64,000 nucleotides of DNA from a phage. The stretch lies in the sequence record PZ445526.1. One strand, written 5' to 3'. The notes under the pieces are model-generated. The model saw only the letters and a list, made by a program, of their open reading frames with translations. It did not search any database and was not told where the DNA came from. Shown here one piece after another: positions 2,600 to 19,830 of this stretch. A program made the translations under genes and the position numbers. Position 1 is the first letter of the stretch. Each line of letters begins with the position of its first letter.

Positions 2600-2848
2600 T
2601 TACTTCAGTGTTACCACAAAGTGACGAACTGCTTTTCGTGCAGCAGAAGCCAAAGGCTTAGCATATTTAAGTTCATCTTTTTCCTGAAGCTCAGCAGCTA
2701 ATGCAGTTTGAGCAGGATTCAGATGTTTGAAATAACGCAGGATTTCAAGAGCTTCGGCTTCAACATCAATAGATGCGCCATAGTTTTCGTGACCACTATT
2801 CCATGCGTTTCGTTGCAGTTCAAGAGCGTGTTGTAATTGTTTAATCAT
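2600..2848 (-). CDS. rIII: rIII lysis-inhibition accessory protein, 82 aa
   Basis: 82-aa product MIKQLQHALELQRNAWNSGHENYG... recognised as T4 rIII; position between 31 and the 30.x ORFs matches T4. Confidence 0.85.
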   Translation of the reverse strand: MIKQLQHALELQRNAWNSGHENYGASIDVEAEALEILRYFKHLNPAQTALAAELQEKDELKYAKPLASAARKAVRHFVVTLK

Positions 2849-2987
2849 TTAAAAATTCTCGTTAGAGATTAAAACTCGGTAGTCACGTTCTTCTGAATTT
2901 CATCTTCTTTCGACAGATCTCTCAGTTGTAGACTACCACATAGAATTGTTCGGTTGACTTATTATTCCGACACCCAATTCATATTAT

Positions 2988-2995
2988 TATTTATA
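2988..2995 (-). promoter_or_regulatory. Candidate late promoter box TATAAATA
   Basis: Plus-strand tatttata is the reverse complement of TATAAATA, just downstream of the gene 31 stop; would read into rIII. Confidence 0.35.
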
Positions 2996-3331
2996 TCACT
3001 TATAAAGACACGGAATAGCTTTATAGTGACAAGTAACGAATTTTTGTTTAATTTCTTTTGGCTGCTTAAGACCCAGAGCTACAAAAGGATGCGGAACATT
3101 TCGAATTTGACCAACTGGAAGAGAAGTCAAATCACCAACTTCGCAGAAACCTTCAGGAACATCAGGACCAACAGAGTGAACTACACACAGTTCAGGAACT
3201 TCACCTTGAACACGTTTACCGATAATAAGTCCTGATTCTGTGACTTCTTCATCACCAGCTTGTGCAGGTTCAGAAACTAAAATAACATATTCACCGACAG
3301 CACGAATTGGTAGCTGTTGTACTTCAGACAT
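2996..3331 (-). CDS. 31: gp31 co-chaperonin (GroES-like), 111 aa
   Basis: 111-aa product [22 protein letters not shown]... recognised as T4 gp31. Confidence 0.9.
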
Positions 3332-12171: not shown

Positions 12172-14435
12172 TACAATTTACACGCTGCACAATCGTCGGC
12201 TTTAGGAGTTTCGATTTCATAATCATCAGTACCAGAACCATCGCGGGTATTATGATAATAGAAATTTTTAATGCCATAATACCATCCGTATAGCATATCA
12301 TCAATCATTATTGACATTGGAACCTTGCCTTTAGGGAAGATTTGGGGGTCATAATATGTATTTGCTGAAGCTGATTGACATACCCATTTCAGCATAATAG
12401 CTACCTGCGTAAGATAAGGTTTATTACCTTTCTTAGCTAATTTCCATGTATAATCATAGAGGTCTATGTTATGCTCAATATTGGGCACGACTTGATTAAA
12501 GGAGCCCTCTTTTGATTCTTTAACAGAGACTGGTCCACGTGGAGGCTCGATACCGTTTGTACTGTTAGAAACTTGGGAAGATGACTCACATGGCATAAGT
12601 GCTGATAATGTGCTATTACGGATGCCAAAGAGCTTAAGGTCTTCCCGCAGCGACGACCAGTCACAAACGTATTTTGGAGCTGCGATTTGGTCAATCTTTT
12701 TATTGTACCAGTCGATAGGTAATTCGCCTCGAGACCAACGAGTGTCTGAATAATATTCGCAAGGTCCTTTTTCTTTGGCGAGCTTAATGGATGCTTTAAT
12801 GAGTCCATACTGTAATCTCTCAAATAGTTCATGTGTTAAATCGTTAGCATCTTCATAAGAAGCAAAGTTACTTGCCAGCCAAGCCGCATAGTTGGTAACA
12901 CCTACACCAAGGTTACGACGCTTTTTAGCTTTTTCTGCTTCAGGAACTGGATATCCTTGGTAATCCAAAAGATTATCAAGAGCACGAACTTGAACTTCTG
13001 CCAATTCATTAATTTTATCTTGGTCTTGCCAATCGAAGTTATCCAACACAAATGCAGATAACGTGCACAAGCCAATTTCAGCATCAGGACTATTCACATC
13101 ATTTGTTGGAATAGCAATTTCACAGCACAAGTTACTCTGACGAATAGGTGCCTTTTCACGAATAAACGGAGTATAGTTATTTGTATTATCAATGAACTGC
13201 ACATAAATCCTTGCTGTTCCTGAACGTTCAGTCATGAGCAATTCAAATAGTTCACGGGCTTTAATACGCTTTTTACGAATATTAGGGTCTTTTTCTGCTG
13301 CTTCGTATAATTCACGGAAACGGTTTTGGTCTTTAAAATAAGAATAATAAAGCTCGCCACCCATTTCATGCGGACTGAACAAAGTAATGTAATCGTTCTT
13401 TCCGAATCGTTCCATCATCAAATCATTCAGTTGAACACCATAATCCATATGACGAATTCGGTTTTCTTCTACGCCTTTGTTATTTTTCAAAACGAGAAGA
13501 TTTTCAACTTCCAAATGCCAAATAGGATAATAAGCAGTAGCAGCGCCGCCACGAATTCCACCCTGTGAACATGATTTAACTGCAGTCTGAAAATGTTTCC
13601 AAAAAGGAATAACACCAGTATGACGTACTTCACCCATGCCAATCTTAGAACCTTCGGCACGAATCATACCAACGTTAATACCAATTCCAGCGCGTTTAGA
13701 GATATATTCAACAATTGAAGCGGAAGCCTTGTTGATAGACTTTAATGAATCACCTGCCTCAATAACAACACATGAACTAAACTGTCTAGTCGGAGTACGA
13801 CAACCAGCCATAATAGGAGTTGGCAGTGAAATCTGTCGAGTAGATACTGCTTCATAAAAACGGATAACATGTTTTAATCTATCAACAGGTTCATCTTGAT
13901 GCAGTGCCATTCCAATAGCCATAAATGCAAACTGTGGAGTTTCATAAATTTGACCAGTGGTTTTATCTTTAACTAGATATTTTTCTTTTAATTGCATCGC
14001 CCCGGAATAAGTAAATTCCATATCCCGCTCGTGCTTAATTTTTGATTCTAAAAATGTAATTTCTTCTGCTGAATATTTTGACAATAATTCAGGGTCATAT
14101 TTACCTTCATTTACACAGTAAGAAATATGGTCAATAAATGAACGTGGTTCATACTGCCCGTAAACATGCTTACGAAGAGCAAACATTAAACAGCGTGCAG
14201 CTACATATTGATAATCAGGTTCTTCAACCGAAATAGAATTCGCAGCGGCCTTAATGACAATAGTCTGAATATCGTCAGTTGTCATTCCATCACGGAGATA
14301 AGATTTAATATTTTCATATAATTCATAAGGATCTACTGATGTTCCCTCAGCTGCCCAAGATAAAACTTTAATAATTTTTTGTGGGTCAAAGCTCTGAGAA
14401 ACACCACTACTTTTGATAACATTAATTAATTGCAT
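12171..14435 (-). CDS. nrdA: Ribonucleotide reductase alpha subunit, 754 aa
   Basis: 754-aa class I RNR large subunit with NLCCEIA active-site region; recognised as T4 NrdA. Confidence 0.95.
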   Translation of the reverse strand: MQLINVIKSSGVSQSFDPQKIIKVLSWAAEGTSVDPYELYENIKSYLRDGMTTDDIQTIVIKAAANSISVEEPDYQYVAARCLMFALRKHVYGQYEPRSFIDHISYCVNEGKYDPELLSKYSAEEITFLESKIKHERDMEFTYSGAMQLKEKYLVKDKTTGQIYETPQFAFMAIGMALHQDEPVDRLKHVIRFYEAVSTRQISLPTPIMAGCRTPTRQFSSCVVIEAGDSLKSINKASASIVEYISKRAGIGINVGMIRAEGSKIGMGEVRHTGVIPFWKHFQTAVKSCSQGGIRGGAATAYYPIWHLEVENLLVLKNNKGVEENRIRHMDYGVQLNDLMMERFGKNDYITLFSPHEMGGELYYSYFKDQNRFRELYEAAEKDPNIRKKRIKARELFELLMTERSGTARIYVQFIDNTNNYTPFIREKAPIRQSNLCCEIAIPTNDVNSPDAEIGLCTLSAFVLDNFDWQDQDKINELAEVQVRALDNLLDYQGYPVPEAEKAKKRRNLGVGVTNYAAWLASNFASYEDANDLTHELFERLQYGLIKASIKLAKEKGPCEYYSDTRWSRGELPIDWYNKKIDQIAAPKYVCDWSSLREDLKLFGIRNSTLSALMPCESSSQVSNSTNGIEPPRGPVSVKESKEGSFNQVVPNIEHNIDLYDYTWKLAKKGNKPYLTQVAIMLKWVCQSASANTYYDPQIFPKGKVPMSIMIDDMLYGWYYGIKNFYYHNTRDGSGTDDYEIETPKADDCAACKL

Positions 14436-14752
14436 AAGTCCTCAACTTGAAAATCGTCTTTAAACAATCGGTTAACTATATGAGCTATTATATCACCATG
14501 ACACGGCTTTGGTTTACATGTGCATCCTAGCCTCATTCCACGTAAAGGCTCTAAATGTGCTTTAGTTATTTCTCCGGATTTAATTCGACGTATAAAATCT
14601 TTTTTGAATAATTCAATGGCAGCCTCCCGGCTGCCAGCATCTTTACCGACGTAATTTCCCCAAAATGTACCGCGGTGAATATTAACATCAAAGTCGGATT
14701 TGTATTTATTCACTACCCGGCATAGACGGCCCGGTTGGTAATAATTCTTCAT
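14426..14752 (-). CDS. Hypothetical protein, 108 aa
   Basis: ATG-initiated ORF between td and nrdA. Confidence 0.55.
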
Positions 14753-14969
14753 ATTGTTTTTCCGTTAAAACAGTAATATCGTAGTAACAGTCAGAAGAAG
14801 TTTTAACTGTGGAAATTTTATTATCAAAATACTCACGAGTCATTTTATGAGTATAGTATTTTTTACCATAAATGGTAATAGGCTGTTCTGGTCCTGGAAC
14901 TTCTAACTCACTTGGGTTAGGAAGTGTAAAAAGAACAACGCCAGAAGTATCTTTAAATCGTAAAATCAT
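14706..14969 (-). CDS. Hypothetical protein, about 87 aa
   Basis: Track ORF starts on TTG at 14981; in-frame ATG at 14969 with GAGGA upstream. Confidence 0.45.
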
Positions 14970-14989
14970 ATATCCTCGCAATAATAAAA

Positions 14990-15850
14990 TTACACCGCCA
15001 TCTTTCCTTTAATAGGAGGGTGTGATTCATAGTTGTTAAGAACGAAATCTTTAGGCCTAAGTTTAAGAACATATTTTAATTGTTCTTTAGTAGAAAGATA
15101 TCGGAATTTATAAGGTAGACCACTTATTACCAGCTCACAAAGCTCTTTAGGTTCACGCCTCAAAATTTCTTTACATTGTTCTACGTGATTCATATAGATA
15201 TGAGTATTACCACCAGAAAATATCAAATCTCCCGGAATAAGATTACACATCTTAGCTACAATATGAACTAACGTAGCATATGATGCAATATTAAATGGAA
15301 GACCGAGGAAAACATCTACCGAACGTTGATACCACTGCAAATCCAAATAGCCATTACGCACATTAAACTGATAGAACATATGACAAGGTGGTAATGCCAT
15401 CTGCTTAAGTTCTGCCGGATTCCACGCAGAAACAATTTGACGCCTATCATTTGGCAGTTTTTTAATACGATCAATAACTTCTATAATTTGGTCTACACCA
15501 CCAAAATCACGCCACTGTTTTCCATAAATTGGACCAAGTTCACCGCTATGGTATCCTAAATCTTTTGCTTGATTTTCGTAATTTTCATCCCAAACTGTTT
15601 TGCCTTGGATTAACGAATCATGTTGAATTAATCGCAAATCATTGACATTTGTGCTTCCCGATAAAAACCATATTAGCTCAGCAATGCAAGCTTTCCAGGC
15701 GAGCTTCTTAGTTGTTACCGCAGGAAAACCTTTGGTTAAATCCCAACGCAATTTAGTACCGAACAAAGCAATTGTTCCTGTGCCTGTTCGGTCATCGGTT
15801 TCATAACCATTTTCAAGGATGTTTTTAATTAAATCTTGGTATTGTTTCAT
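14990..15850 (-). CDS. td: Thymidylate synthase, uninterrupted, 286 aa
   Basis: Contains the thymidylate synthase PCH active-site motif ([12 protein letters not shown]); one continuous 286-codon ORF with no intron; ATG at 15850 preceded by AGGTG. Confidence 0.93.
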
Positions 15851-15865
15851 TTAACACCTATATAA

Positions 15866-16213
15866 TCAATACGGTTTAGCATCAAATTTTCTTTCAATTT
15901 CAGGCGTAAAATATAATTCTTTACCACGTTTGGAAAAGCGACCAATAATATGATAATTATTCTCATCAAACGTGATATTACCAATATCCATAGCTTTCAA
16001 CCAAATATCGATATTTCTATCCAGCTTTATGTCAAAATTCCAATACGGAGAAATATTACCGAAAATACTGCAAGCGGATTCAGTGAAACAACTGCTATAA
16101 ATCTTGTCTTTAGGAACTACTAATTGATAGACACCTTTAATAAACTGAGGACCTTGCCATTTTGGCTGTTTCACGTCTTTTTCTAATAAAATAGGGTAAT
16201 AATTAAAATTCAT
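15866..16213 (-). CDS. Hypothetical protein between frd and td, 115 aa from the ATG
   Basis: ORF fills the frd-td gap; track start is GTG at 16225, first ATG at 16213; no recognisable motif. Confidence 0.5.
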   Translation of the reverse strand: MNFNYYPILLEKDVKQPKWQGPQFIKGVYQLVVPKDKIYSSCFTESACSIFGNISPYWNFDIKLDRNIDIWLKAMDIGNITFDENNYHIIGRFSKRGKELYFTPEIERKFDAKPY

Positions 16214-16233
16214 ATTTTCCGCCACGCGTTATT

Positions 16234-17060
<827 letters not shown>

Positions 17061-17070
17061 ATTATTTTCC

Positions 17071-17313
17071 TTAAACAGACTTTTTCACAATTTTCCAATC
17101 AGCTTTAAACTGTTCAACGTCAGAATGGTAAATCCAGAATCCTGCGCTTTCTCCGTCTTCATAAAGAGGACATCCATCACATTCATCTTCCCACCCCATA
17201 TCACGTAAAAGGTGTTCAGCTTTTTCAACAAGCTCAGAATCTTTACCGATGATATTAAAATACCATTTACCTCTAACTTCTGAATCTTTGATGCTTTGGC
17301 GTTGTAATCTCAT
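17071..17313 (-). CDS. Hypothetical protein, 80 aa
   Basis: ATG at 17313 preceded by GAGGAGAA. Confidence 0.6.
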   Translation of the reverse strand: MRLQRQSIKDSEVRGKWYFNIIGKDSELVEKAEHLLRDMGWEDECDGCPLYEDGESAGFWIYHSDVEQFKADWKIVKKSV

Positions 17314-17329
17314 TTTATTCTCCTCAGTT

Positions 17330-17370
17330 GATAGGGTAATAGTATCACACTACTACCCTGTTGTAAACTA
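17330..17370 (-). promoter_or_regulatory. Candidate early promoter
   Basis: Plus-strand tgtaaac at 17362..17368 with gttgatagggtaatagtat upstream block. Confidence 0.4.
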
Positions 17371-17748
17371 CTTTTTGAAAGTTTTTCGCAAAAGTTCAAT
17401 GATTTCATCTACATTGTTTTCATCTACAATGCAGTGAATTTTTGTTACGCCAGAAACCGGGTCTTTGACTTCGTCTTTTTCAGAAGTCGGTTCTTTATAC
17501 TCGCGAAAACAATGAAATTCGTCTTCGCAAATTTCTAAAAGTCTATCTTTGAGGTAAAAATGCTTTCCATTTGCGCATTCAATGTGTTTTACTGCTTTAT
17601 ATCCGTTAGCGACGGAAACTTCTTTAACTTCAAACCATCCGCCATTATCTCGAATGGCTTTAACTATTGATGAATTAGAACGTGGGCTATAATTAATAAA
17701 TGTATCAATAAGTCTTGGAACAAGTTCATACTTTTTACCGGTATACAT
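17368..17748 (-). CDS. Hypothetical protein, 126 aa
   Basis: ATG-initiated ORF. Confidence 0.6.
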   Translation of the reverse strand: MYTGKKYELVPRLIDTFINYSPRSNSSIVKAIRDNGGWFEVKEVSVANGYKAVKHIECANGKHFYLKDRLLEICEDEFHCFREYKEPTSEKDEVKDPVSGVTKIHCIVDENNVDEIIELLRKTFKK

Positions 17749-17792
17749 TACGGTTTCCTCATTTTAATAGGGGCTTGATAGCCCCTTGATAA

Positions 17793-18023
17793 TTATTGTT
17801 CAATCAGTCCCATGTAAAATTCTGCGTCTTCAGAATCCATGCCATCGCAATATTCATTAGCCATAAAGCGGGTGAGGTCTTCAAGAGGACCTTCAATGAC
17901 AATAGAAAAATTGCAATAATTGGGATCATCGTGAATACTTGTGATACTAAGTTCAGGATAACGATTACGAATAATCTCTTCAATATATTCAAAATCAACG
18001 ATGTCAATATCAACTTTAGCCAT
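17793..18023 (-). CDS. Hypothetical acidic protein, 76 aa
   Basis: Track ORF starts on TTG at 18086 inside the promoter; ATG at 18023 preceded by AAGAGGAAA. Confidence 0.55.
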
Positions 18024-18060
18024 ATTATTTTCCTCTTTAATCATCAGCAGTATTGCCGAT

Positions 18061-18098
18061 AGTTGTATAGTACCATGGAAGGACAAGGATGTAAACCG
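18061..18098 (-). promoter_or_regulatory. Candidate early promoter within a repeated module
   Basis: gtaaac at 18091..18096 and gtatagtacc at 18065..18074; same module recurs at 35196..35265. Confidence 0.45.
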
Positions 18099-18121
18099 TT
18101 TTGTGAAAAAATTTTTGAAAT

Positions 18122-18146
18122 AAAAAAGGGGACCTCTAGGGTCCCC
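18122..18146 (-). terminator. Rho-independent terminator downstream of gene 32
   Basis: ggggacc-tcta-ggtcccc hairpin followed on the minus strand by a U-run (plus aaaaaa 18122..18127); gene 32 stop at 18169. Confidence 0.75.
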
Positions 18147-18168
18147 AATTAATTAGTAATATAATCTA

Positions 18169-19077
18169 TTAAAGGTCATTCAAAAGGTCATCCAGGTCCG
18201 TGTCATCAGCACTAGATGAACTGCCAGAGCTTGAGCTCATAAAATCATCTTCAGTTTTTGTATTGAAGTCATCAACATTGAATGCATCCAAATCATCAGC
18301 AACTTTATCAGCTTTCTTAGCGGCAGTTGCTGCGGCACCGCCCATCACAGCAGTTCCCATAACTTGACTGAACTTAGTGCTCAGTTCTTCAAATGATTTG
18401 AATTTATCTTTAGAAGTCATTTCAGAAAGGTCAACCATTTGTTCGAACAGTTCTTTCTGGAAAGATTTATCGTCAATGTTTGGAATCGCAGATTGATTCA
18501 GGAATTTAGATTCGTCGTAGTTACTAAATCCAGAAACTTGTTTAACTTTCAGTACAAAGTTAGCACCTTCCCACGGACAAGTTACATCAACCGGAGTTTC
18601 ACCCATTTCAACATCAACTGCAATCATTGCATTGATTTTATCCCAGATTTTCTTACCGAAACGGTATTTAAATACTTTACCTTCATTTTCTGGAGCAGCT
18701 GGGTCTTTTACTACAAGAATGTTAGCCCAGTAAGAAGTTTTACGTTTAACAAGACTGTACTCTTTATTGTCAGTGTTGTACAGATCATTTTTACTGATGT
18801 ATTGACATACTGGACAAGAATCGTAATCACCGTGGGTAGATGAGCAATTTTCGATATACCATTTACCGTTTTTCTTGAAACCGTGATTTACAAGAATTGC
18901 AAATGGTGCCTGTTCATCATTTTTAGACGGAAGAAAACGAATTACTGCTTGACCGTTACCCGCATTATCGAGTTTCAGTTTCCACTCGCCTTTATCTTCA
19001 GAAGAAAAACCACCTTTATTTCCAGCCAGTTTAGCCATTTGTGCAGCGAGTTCAGCAGTAGATTTACGTTTAAACAT
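18169..19077 (-). CDS. 32: Single-stranded DNA-binding protein gp32, 302 aa
   Basis: Recognised as T4 gp32 including zinc ligands [14 protein letters not shown] and acidic Ser/Asp-rich C-terminus. Confidence 0.95.
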
Positions 19078-19140
19078 TTTTATTTCCTTTTTAATTTAAT
19101 TAACAGTTGGTGCTATGACGATGTATGACCTCATAGCTGG
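19078..19140 (-). promoter_or_regulatory. Gene 32 translational operator (pseudoknot plus AU-rich leader)
   Basis: Minus strand reads GCTATGAGGTCATACATCGTCATAGCAC then TTAATTAAATTAAAAAGGAAATA before the ATG, matching my recollection of the T4 gene 32 operator. Confidence 0.6.
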
Positions 19141-19160
19141 TCAGTGAGATAATTATAATC

Positions 19161-19168
19161 TATTTATA
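19161..19168 (-). promoter_or_regulatory. Late promoter box TATAAATA upstream of gene 32
   Basis: Plus-strand tatttata, reverse complement of TATAAATA, in the 59-32 intergenic region. Confidence 0.5.
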
Positions 19169-19176
19169 ATAAGCAA

Positions 19177-19830
19177 TTAATACTTGCAAGATTTCACAGT
19201 TTCAATGAAAACACTTTTAGCTTTCTGTGAATCAATATTTAAAATTTTTCTATAAGCCTTTAACTTTATAGAATAATTATTCCAGACTAAATTATCAGTC
19301 TGTTCATCATGTTTATCAATTATATTTAAAAATGAATCAAGCAAGATAAACGTCTCAAACGAAATTATGTTCGATTGCAGAAGTTTAAAAATATAACTTG
19401 ACTGAACCTTTGGATTATATTCAAAGATTTCTTTAAAAGCAGAAACTTCAACTTTTTTACTAAAATAATAAATGTTGCGAATATCTTCTTCAAACTTAAA
19501 TTTAATTTGCTTTAAGCGTCCGATATATTCACGATAAAACACAAGTGCATCAGCGTCAGAGATGTCACCAATCCAAGCATCTTGGTTAGCAACAAGATTG
19601 CTTATAAAGATTAAAGCAAGTTCCTTTAATTTATATTTTTCTGATAACTTCTGGAAAAAATACTTATCCCTTCGCTTTTGATAAGCGGCATCAGACACCC
19701 GCATGCACCAATTATACTTAATTACATCATACTTTCCATTCATATGCTGTTTTATCATTAAGTATAATTTATAAACTGATTTACCATCAATGTATCTTTC
19801 ACCACCAGCAGGCATGCGGAGTTTAATCAT
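19177..19830 (-). CDS. 59: Helicase loader gp59, 217 aa
   Basis: 217-aa product recognised as T4 gp59; position between 33 and 32. Confidence 0.9.
   Translation of the reverse strand: MIKLRMPAGGERYIDGKSVYKLYLMIKQHMNGKYDVIKYNWCMRVSDAAYQKRRDKYFFQKLSEKYKLKELALIFISNLVANQDAWIGDISDADALVFYREYIGRLKQIKFKFEEDIRNIYYFSKKVEVSAFKEIFEYNPKVQSSYIFKLLQSNIISFETFILLDSFLNIIDKHDEQTDNLVWNNYSIKLKAYRKILNIDSQKAKSVFIETVKSCKY

Follow-up and report, generated by a model that had tools for sequence, protein, structure and literature searches.

td.1, a probable long-standing resident of the frd-td interval that T4 lacks

In phage T4 the genes frd and td, which encode dihydrofolate reductase and thymidylate synthase, overlap by four nucleotides (NC_000866; frd ends at 145109 and td starts at 145112). 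In the phage DNA analysed here, a stretch of 64,000 nucleotides (PZ445526.1; referred to below as the window), the two genes are separated by 383 bp (15851-16233), and a single long open reading frame lies in this gap. This raises the question of what the ORF is, and whether it was added to this genome or lost from T4. An initial annotation, made from the letters alone, had taken it for an extra ORF inserted at this place. Its description of the locus was accurate: the overlap in T4, a segment of roughly 380 bp, an ORF of 115 to 119 codons and an uninterrupted, intronless td of 286 codons were all found as described. The reading of the ORF as an inserted extra did not hold, as is described below.

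The interval and its open reading frame

The window is a segment of a Tequatrovirus (T4-like) genome, and its first 25 kb are about 96.5% identical to the phages FriedrichMiescher and JLBYU24; an identical record was not found. The whole neighbourhood of frd and td lies on the minus strand and is transcribed in the direction from gene 32 to nrdA, in the order gene 32 (18169-19077), a frd.3-like gene (17793-18086), frd.2 (17368-17748), frd.1 (17071-17313), orf81 (16815-17060), frd (16234-16815), the ORF in question, td (14990-15850), nrdA.2 (14706-14981) and nrdA.1 (14426-14752). The frd product has 193 amino acids and matches Pfam DHFR_1 (E 2.3e-19); the td product has 286 amino acids and matches Thymidylat_synt (E 1.2e-96) over positions 1-266 of 266, from which it follows that td has no intron. 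This is a difference to T4, whose td carries an intron with I-TevI; the window td has neither.

In the list of ORFs, the frame between frd and td is given as 15866-16213 when started at ATG and as 15866-16225 when started at GTG. The ATG start yields 115 amino acids followed by a TGA stop, whereas the in-frame GTG at 16223-16225 would add a short N-terminal extension (16214-16225, minus strand) and yield 119 amino acids. Four nucleotides upstream of the ATG is a weak Shine-Dalgarno-like sequence, GGCGGA (16218-16223, minus strand), which is weaker than the sites of td (AGGTG) and frd.1 (GAGGAG); no such sequence precedes the GTG at 16225. The annotation of phage T2H uses the ATG. A metagenomic homologue (P0002, 66% identical) has 119 amino acids, and its methionine is aligned with the GTG of the window.

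The weakness of the Shine-Dalgarno-like sequence would fit a frame that is open by chance in an AT-rich spacer and gives no product, but several observations argue against this. In mononucleotide shuffles of the gap segment a stop-free run of at least 115 codons was obtained in only 5 out of 2000 cases. Compared with the copy of T2H, there are 15 synonymous but only 2 non-synonymous differences, and among five Tequatrovirus copies dN/dS is 0.02-0.06, which is similar to td and below the values for frd (0.04-0.22). The gene is under strong purifying selection. In addition, protein homologues with only 30-45% identity retain the same motifs, as do homologues over the whole range of 30-66% identity, and the fold prediction described below is confident and reproducible. 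The conservation pattern thus refutes a chance frame, whose probability we take to be practically nil. As judged from these comparisons, the ORF is a genuine, conserved coding gene.

It is also a gene that has a name. The protein matches PHROG 1928, a family whose listed function is unknown, with residues 8-115 aligned to positions 2-125 of the 126-position profile (E 1.9e-35). Phage T2H has, at the same place between frd and td, a CDS of identical length (348 nt) that is annotated as td.1 (AY262132.2, protein ABI48932.1) and differs from the window protein in two amino acids; it is the same gene. In RB51 it goes by the name RB32ORF229c, and the window copy is 96-98% identical to those of T6, T2H and RB51. 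By profile, position and length, the ORF is identified as the known td.1 of PHROG 1928, and all the family features tested are present. The gene is annotated in hundreds of genomes. However, a literature search revealed no paper discussing td.1 and no function reported for any member of the family; AY262132 is cited in the literature only as source of an nrdB sequence.

How common is td.1 at this junction? With tblastn against 50,697 phage records it was found in 556; its identity reaches 90% or more in 363 of these, among them T2, T6, RB51, RB33, PP01 and HY01. A contiguous frd/td junction of the T4 type, detected with a 43-nt junction probe, is present in 32 records only, about half of which are T4 itself, laboratory variants and duplicate entries; in 349 further records only the part of the probe that begins with the repeat at the td start is matched (query positions 13-43). 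The interval thus exists in three states in T-even phages: it contains td.1, an unrelated ORF of 68 amino acids, or nothing. Approximately two thirds of the T-even-type junctions carry td.1, one quarter the 68-residue ORF and about 6% are of the T4 type. Since about two thirds of the T4-like coliphages have td.1, it is T4 that stands apart, and there is nothing exceptional about the window. What had been read as an insert in the window is the ORF present at this junction in most T-even genomes.

Anatomy and origin of the T4-type junction

T4-type genomes lack exactly 387 bp that are present in the window, as seen in an alignment of the window, T2H and the T4-type phage RB55. The 387 bp reach from one copy of a 9-bp direct repeat, TAAATGAAA, to the other. 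The first copy (16232-16240, minus strand) spans the frd stop codon TGA (16234-16236), the second (15845-15853, minus strand) spans the td start codon ATG (15848-15850), and recombination between the two would yield the exact T4 sequence ...TATAAATGAAACAATACC... with its ATGA overlap. On either side, frd and td of the window are 95-97% identical to those of the T4 type, and the end of frd keeps the ATGA. The difference lies in how td is started: the window td has a Shine-Dalgarno sequence of its own, AGGTG (15855-15859, minus strand), within the 15-nt spacer between td.1 and td (15851-15865), whereas td of T4 is stop/start-coupled to frd.

At the end of frd there is a mini-ORF, ATG AAA TAA (16229-16237, minus strand), which overlaps the frd stop codon (ATGA) and shares its frame with td.1. 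Since the td.1 start itself overlaps the frd stop in other lineages, the mini-ORF of the window may be a dead coupled start codon. On the other hand, the ATGAAA after frd corresponds to the first six bases of td, and this fits an insertion into a T4-type junction. The mini-ORF may therefore be a vestige of a coupled start or the footprint of such an insertion. Likewise, a 9-bp repeat is equally expected from an insertion with a duplicated target, and the repeats alone give no polarity. The distribution among the sequence records favours a deletion in the T4 lineage. From the rII deletion literature it is well known that T4 can lose DNA between short direct repeats, and the T4-type junction would most simply be explained by a deletion through recombination between the TAAATGAAA repeats. 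The 9-bp repeat would then be a tidy example of the loss of a cassette that leaves behind a working, translationally coupled junction.

The alternative occupant of the interval, here called orf68, is an unrelated ORF of 68 amino acids (PHROG 9550). It overlaps both neighbouring genes, the frd stop with its start and the td start with its stop, and 135 records carry it at 90% identity or more, e.g. Sf21, ESh29 and JS98. It lies on the minus strand at 1503-1709 of L007 (Sf21), at 1661-1867 of L009 and at about 1517-1723 of L008 (JS98, where it is unannotated). A copy with 79% identity is present in Marfavirus, and homologues with about 43% identity are found in Phapecoctavirus (phAPEC8-like), which are not T4-like phages. 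Dhakavirus MX01 has an overlap similar to that of T4, whereas orf68 is present in its relative JS98; this suggests that a loss occurred a second time, independently.

In at least four other lineages a diverged homologue of td.1 (31-45% identity) follows immediately on frd and precedes td, namely in Kanagawavirus (IME523), Jiaodavirus (ValerieMcCarty04), Marfavirus (AmPh_EK29) and the unclassified Citrobacter phage Ursula. The order frd-td.1-td on one strand is also found in T2H, T6, F2 and Killian, and each of the five metagenomic contigs that were looked up for distant relatives has td.1 between frd and td. In comparison with these lineages, Td.1 of the window is 31-45% identical, Frd 45-49% and Td 73-78%. 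The divergence of Td.1 is thus about that of its neighbour Frd, as would be expected of an old cassette region reduced to varying degrees, and not of a recent insertion.

In several other genera td.1 is followed by a tandem paralogue, td.1B, which matches PHROG 1928 as well (E 4.9e-36). Proteins of the td.1B type are encoded in 124 records from many enterobacterial T4-like genera, among them Kanagawavirus, Marfavirus, Moonvirus, Gelderlandvirus and Karamvirus; examples are found at 2817-3176 of L003, 2790-3143 of L005, about 2790-3134 of L006, 3332-3673 of L015 and 3336-3701 of L011. They share the motifs QKKW...HG(I/L)Y...GRFxKxG with Td.1 but differ from it by an insertion of about 20 residues after QKKW (consensus ALVxQGxxPTIxQ(F/Y)KRNP) and by a shorter C terminus. 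td.1B is absent from Tequatrovirus, and no paralogue of td.1 was found within the window. Marfavirus and one metagenomic contig have the order frd, td.1, td.1B, orf68, td.

Inspection of these loci also revealed some irregularities in the records. In phage Ursula, the annotated CDS of td.1B (2682-3134) has its start placed too far upstream, and an annotation is missing for the first paralogue (2480-2809). In phage F2, a 2-bp insertion (AA) before the usual stop of frd (606-1223 of L016) shifts the frame; Frd is 12 residues longer and frd overlaps the td.1 start by 11 nt. The record PV654520.1 ("Pseudomonas phage vB_PSGBLB0006", 142 kb, host label P. aeruginosa) has a td.1 that is 98% identical to that of the window. 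Its frd-td block has 92% nucleotide identity to the window, which is in the range of coliphage Tequatrovirus, and the host label looks doubtful.

The sole unusual feature of the window copy is the short spacer between td.1 and td. In T2H (3862-3906 of L001), T6 and Killian this spacer has 45 nt, compared with 15 nt in the window. The additional 30 bp (AGCTTCA...TATAAT) contain a TATAAT and a sequence that resembles a MotA box, AGCTTCA, and this promoter-like piece may be a middle promoter for td. The short spacer is present in only eight records: Phaginator, REP1, Ge15, SF (two records), PHB12, NHEP29 and NHEP36.

Expression context and predicted structure

A strong terminator-like hairpin (GGGGACC...GGTCCCC followed by a T run; 18128-18146, minus strand) is located just downstream of gene 32. 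Between 18128 and 14300 no further terminator-like site was found on the minus strand. Promoter-like sites with a TTTACA -35 element lie ahead of frd.3 (18095-18067), frd.2 (17818-17789) and frd.1 (17367-17339), all on the minus strand, and are the likely source of a transcript that covers td.1. It should be mentioned that promoter-like matches from gene 32 to td were no more frequent than expected by chance (21, compared with 19.4 ± 5.0 in shuffled sequence). MotA-box and late-promoter motifs were not found around td.1, and an Rfam scan of 14000-19500 gave nothing near threshold. A self-contained cassette with its own promoter and terminator, as in a moron, was considered for td.1 and rejected, because neither element was found. 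Lacking both, td.1 is probably read together with frd.1, orf81, frd and td from one leftward early transcript.

Td.1 is a mildly basic protein of about 13.7 kDa (pI 8.5), which is predicted to form a single, beta-rich domain. The AlphaFold model, built on an alignment of 16 sequences, has a pLDDT of 92.2 (87-92 for the five models) and a pTM of 0.85. It comprises seven strands, one helix (68-76) and a long terminal hairpin (86-96, 99-104). A homologue predicted independently in BFVD superposes on the model with a TM score of 0.80, and the distant structural relatives are uncharacterised proteins of T4-like phages of Pectobacterium, Serratia, Erwinia and Aeromonas. In the PDB no significant match to the predicted fold was found, only matches at noise level, and a profile search by sequence gave E values of 0.4 or higher only. 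Many of the noise-level matches are OB-fold domains (HIN, Teb1, Cdc13, RecO, S1, SSB/RPA). The order of elements in Td.1, with strands, a helix and a long hairpin, is compatible with OB-fold nucleic-acid-binding domains such as SSB/RPA, HIN, S1 and cold-shock domains, and the conserved aromatic and basic residues of Td.1 sit in loops. For Td.1 we take an OB fold as a lead from the model and not as a classification.

Five residues are invariant across Td.1 and Td.1B, W19, G27, G91, K95 and G97, and all of them are present in the window protein. L9, Q16, Y29, R92, F93 and F102 are nearly invariant. The conserved residues fall in the beta1-beta2 loop and in the beta-hairpin motif GRFxKxG, and the family alignment contains no conserved Asp, Glu, His, Cys or Ser that would point to catalysis; none of the conserved residues is typical of an active site. 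In line with the statement in the initial annotation that the ORF has no recognisable motif, scans with Pfam, NCBIfam and PADLOC were without match; for Pfam and NCBIfam this holds for the window protein and family members even at E values of up to 10. The family consists solely of single-domain proteins of 99-121 amino acids. HMMER and profile searches covering 1.8 billion cluster representatives and 5.8 billion clusters detected no fusions and no named or bacterial members; a match to an 838-aa TPR-repeat protein (P0012) was rejected as spurious.

What Td.1 may do

We consider it probable that the ORF is td.1, an old resident of the frd-td interval, that its absence from T4-type genomes is most simply a deletion, and that its product is a binding protein. 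td.1 would then be a long-standing resident of this interval in enterobacterial T4-like phages, transcribed early in infection together with frd and td. Its product would be a non-enzymatic protein that most likely binds a partner, either protein or nucleic acid, presumably via the loop and the hairpin that bear W19 and K95. The gene is dispensable, as judged from its absence in T4 and the orf68-type phages. A strong constraint on td.1 combined with its easy loss in some lineages is somewhat paradoxical.

The initial annotation had pointed out that homing endonucleases and accessory cargo accumulate at this junction in T-even phages. The interval is indeed polymorphic, with its three states; a link of td.1 to homing endonucleases was not found. 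That the ORF is recently acquired mobile cargo, i.e. a homing-endonuclease gene or a passenger, is suggested by this polymorphism, by the 9-bp direct repeat that bounds the segment and by a GC content of 31%, compared with 36-39% in the neighbouring genes. Moreover, a homologue is labelled "putative homing endonuclease" in three GenBank records, MZ501066 (FriedrichMiescher), MZ501052 (AugustSocin) and OR271596 (ValerieMcCarty04; 2504-2821 of L004), although sequence, profile and fold comparisons lend this label no support. The free-standing homing endonuclease genes of T-even phages (seg, mob) and I-TevI also show presence/absence polymorphism between collinear genomes, but Td.1 differs from them in having no nuclease motif, in being half their usual size or less and in being syntenic across genera. 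No GIY-YIG, HNH, LAGLIDADG, His-Cys box, PD-(D/E)xK or other nuclease domain was detected with Pfam and NCBIfam at E values of up to 10, the 115-residue protein has no conserved acidic or histidine residues, and nucleases are absent from the fold matches. td.1 is present in about two thirds of the Tequatrovirus records and keeps its place in other genera, it has diverged to a similar extent as frd, and whether it is present does not depend on the td intron and I-TevI; T6 and SHFML-11 carry both. A sporadic distribution apart from the flanking genes was not seen either: despite the three states in Tequatrovirus, td.1 is syntenic in all lineages examined. Mobile cargo is thus already largely refuted as an explanation and appears very unlikely to us.

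Two more specific roles are compatible with a binding protein, and we give both of them a roughly equal, low probability. Td.1 could be an accessory of the folate and thymidylate enzymes, for example an adaptor of DHFR and TS in the dNTP-synthesising complex or a regulator that binds folate or nucleotides. Every family member examined is encoded directly after frd and before td, and the stop/start codon overlaps that are usual in the family suggest translational coupling. The strong constraint on td.1, with a dN below that of Frd, points in the same direction, and in the model the conserved cluster of Trp, Lys, Gln and Asn could form a ligand pocket. Against this, DHFR and TS are active in T4 and the orf68-type phages, which have no Td.1. 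Frd of the window differs in only two amino acids from Frd of RB55, which has no td.1, and thus gives no hint of co-adaptation. All genes in the early clusters of T4-like phages keep their order, which makes synteny by itself weak evidence. There is also no similarity to known folate- or nucleotide-binding folds, and we regard an accessory role as rather doubtful. The same holds for the wider idea that Td.1 and Td.1B are a small beta-barrel family, confined to phages and without a solved relative, whose position between frd and td reflects a functional tie, e.g. as an adaptor in the thymidylate cycle or dNTP complex or as a ligand-sensing regulator: it has, in our estimate, a small chance of being correct. 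If it were true, Td.1 would be a component that was missed by studies on T4 because T4 had deleted the gene.

Alternatively, Td.1 could serve host takeover or counter-defence, as an early protein that neutralises a strain-specific host protein or nucleic acid. A target that occurs only in some host strains would explain why td.1 is optional. It is a small gene in the leftward (minus-strand) early block and dispensable in T4, its presence varies among close relatives, other genera have tandem paralogues and the family is restricted to phages; all of this would be in line with such a role. However, counter-defence genes usually evolve fast and lie in shuffled locations, and td.1 evolves very slowly (see the dN/dS values above) and has a fixed position across genera. 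PADLOC gave no match at E values of up to 1 for four members of the family, but it covers defence and not counter-defence proteins, and the literature search found no link between td.1 and any defence system. This role, too, seems improbable to us.

Irrespective of its role, td.1 corrects an expectation centred on T4: the textbook overlap of frd and td is a rare and apparently derived state, and the state with td.1 is the common one. The tight constraint and the confident fold without a solved relative make td.1 a reasonable, though not urgent, target among the T-even genes that are missing from T4.

td.1 is not the only small gene of this neighbourhood that T4 lacks. orf81, located between frd.1 and frd, encodes 81 amino acids that belong to PHROG 3183 (listed function unknown), and its stop codon overlaps the frd start. 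In T4 there is just a gap of 71 nt where the window has orf81. In Citrobacter phage Ursula, the gene annotated immediately ahead of frd also belongs to PHROG 3183, and T6 and Sf21 have an ORF in this position that resembles orf81 in its length of 81 amino acids.
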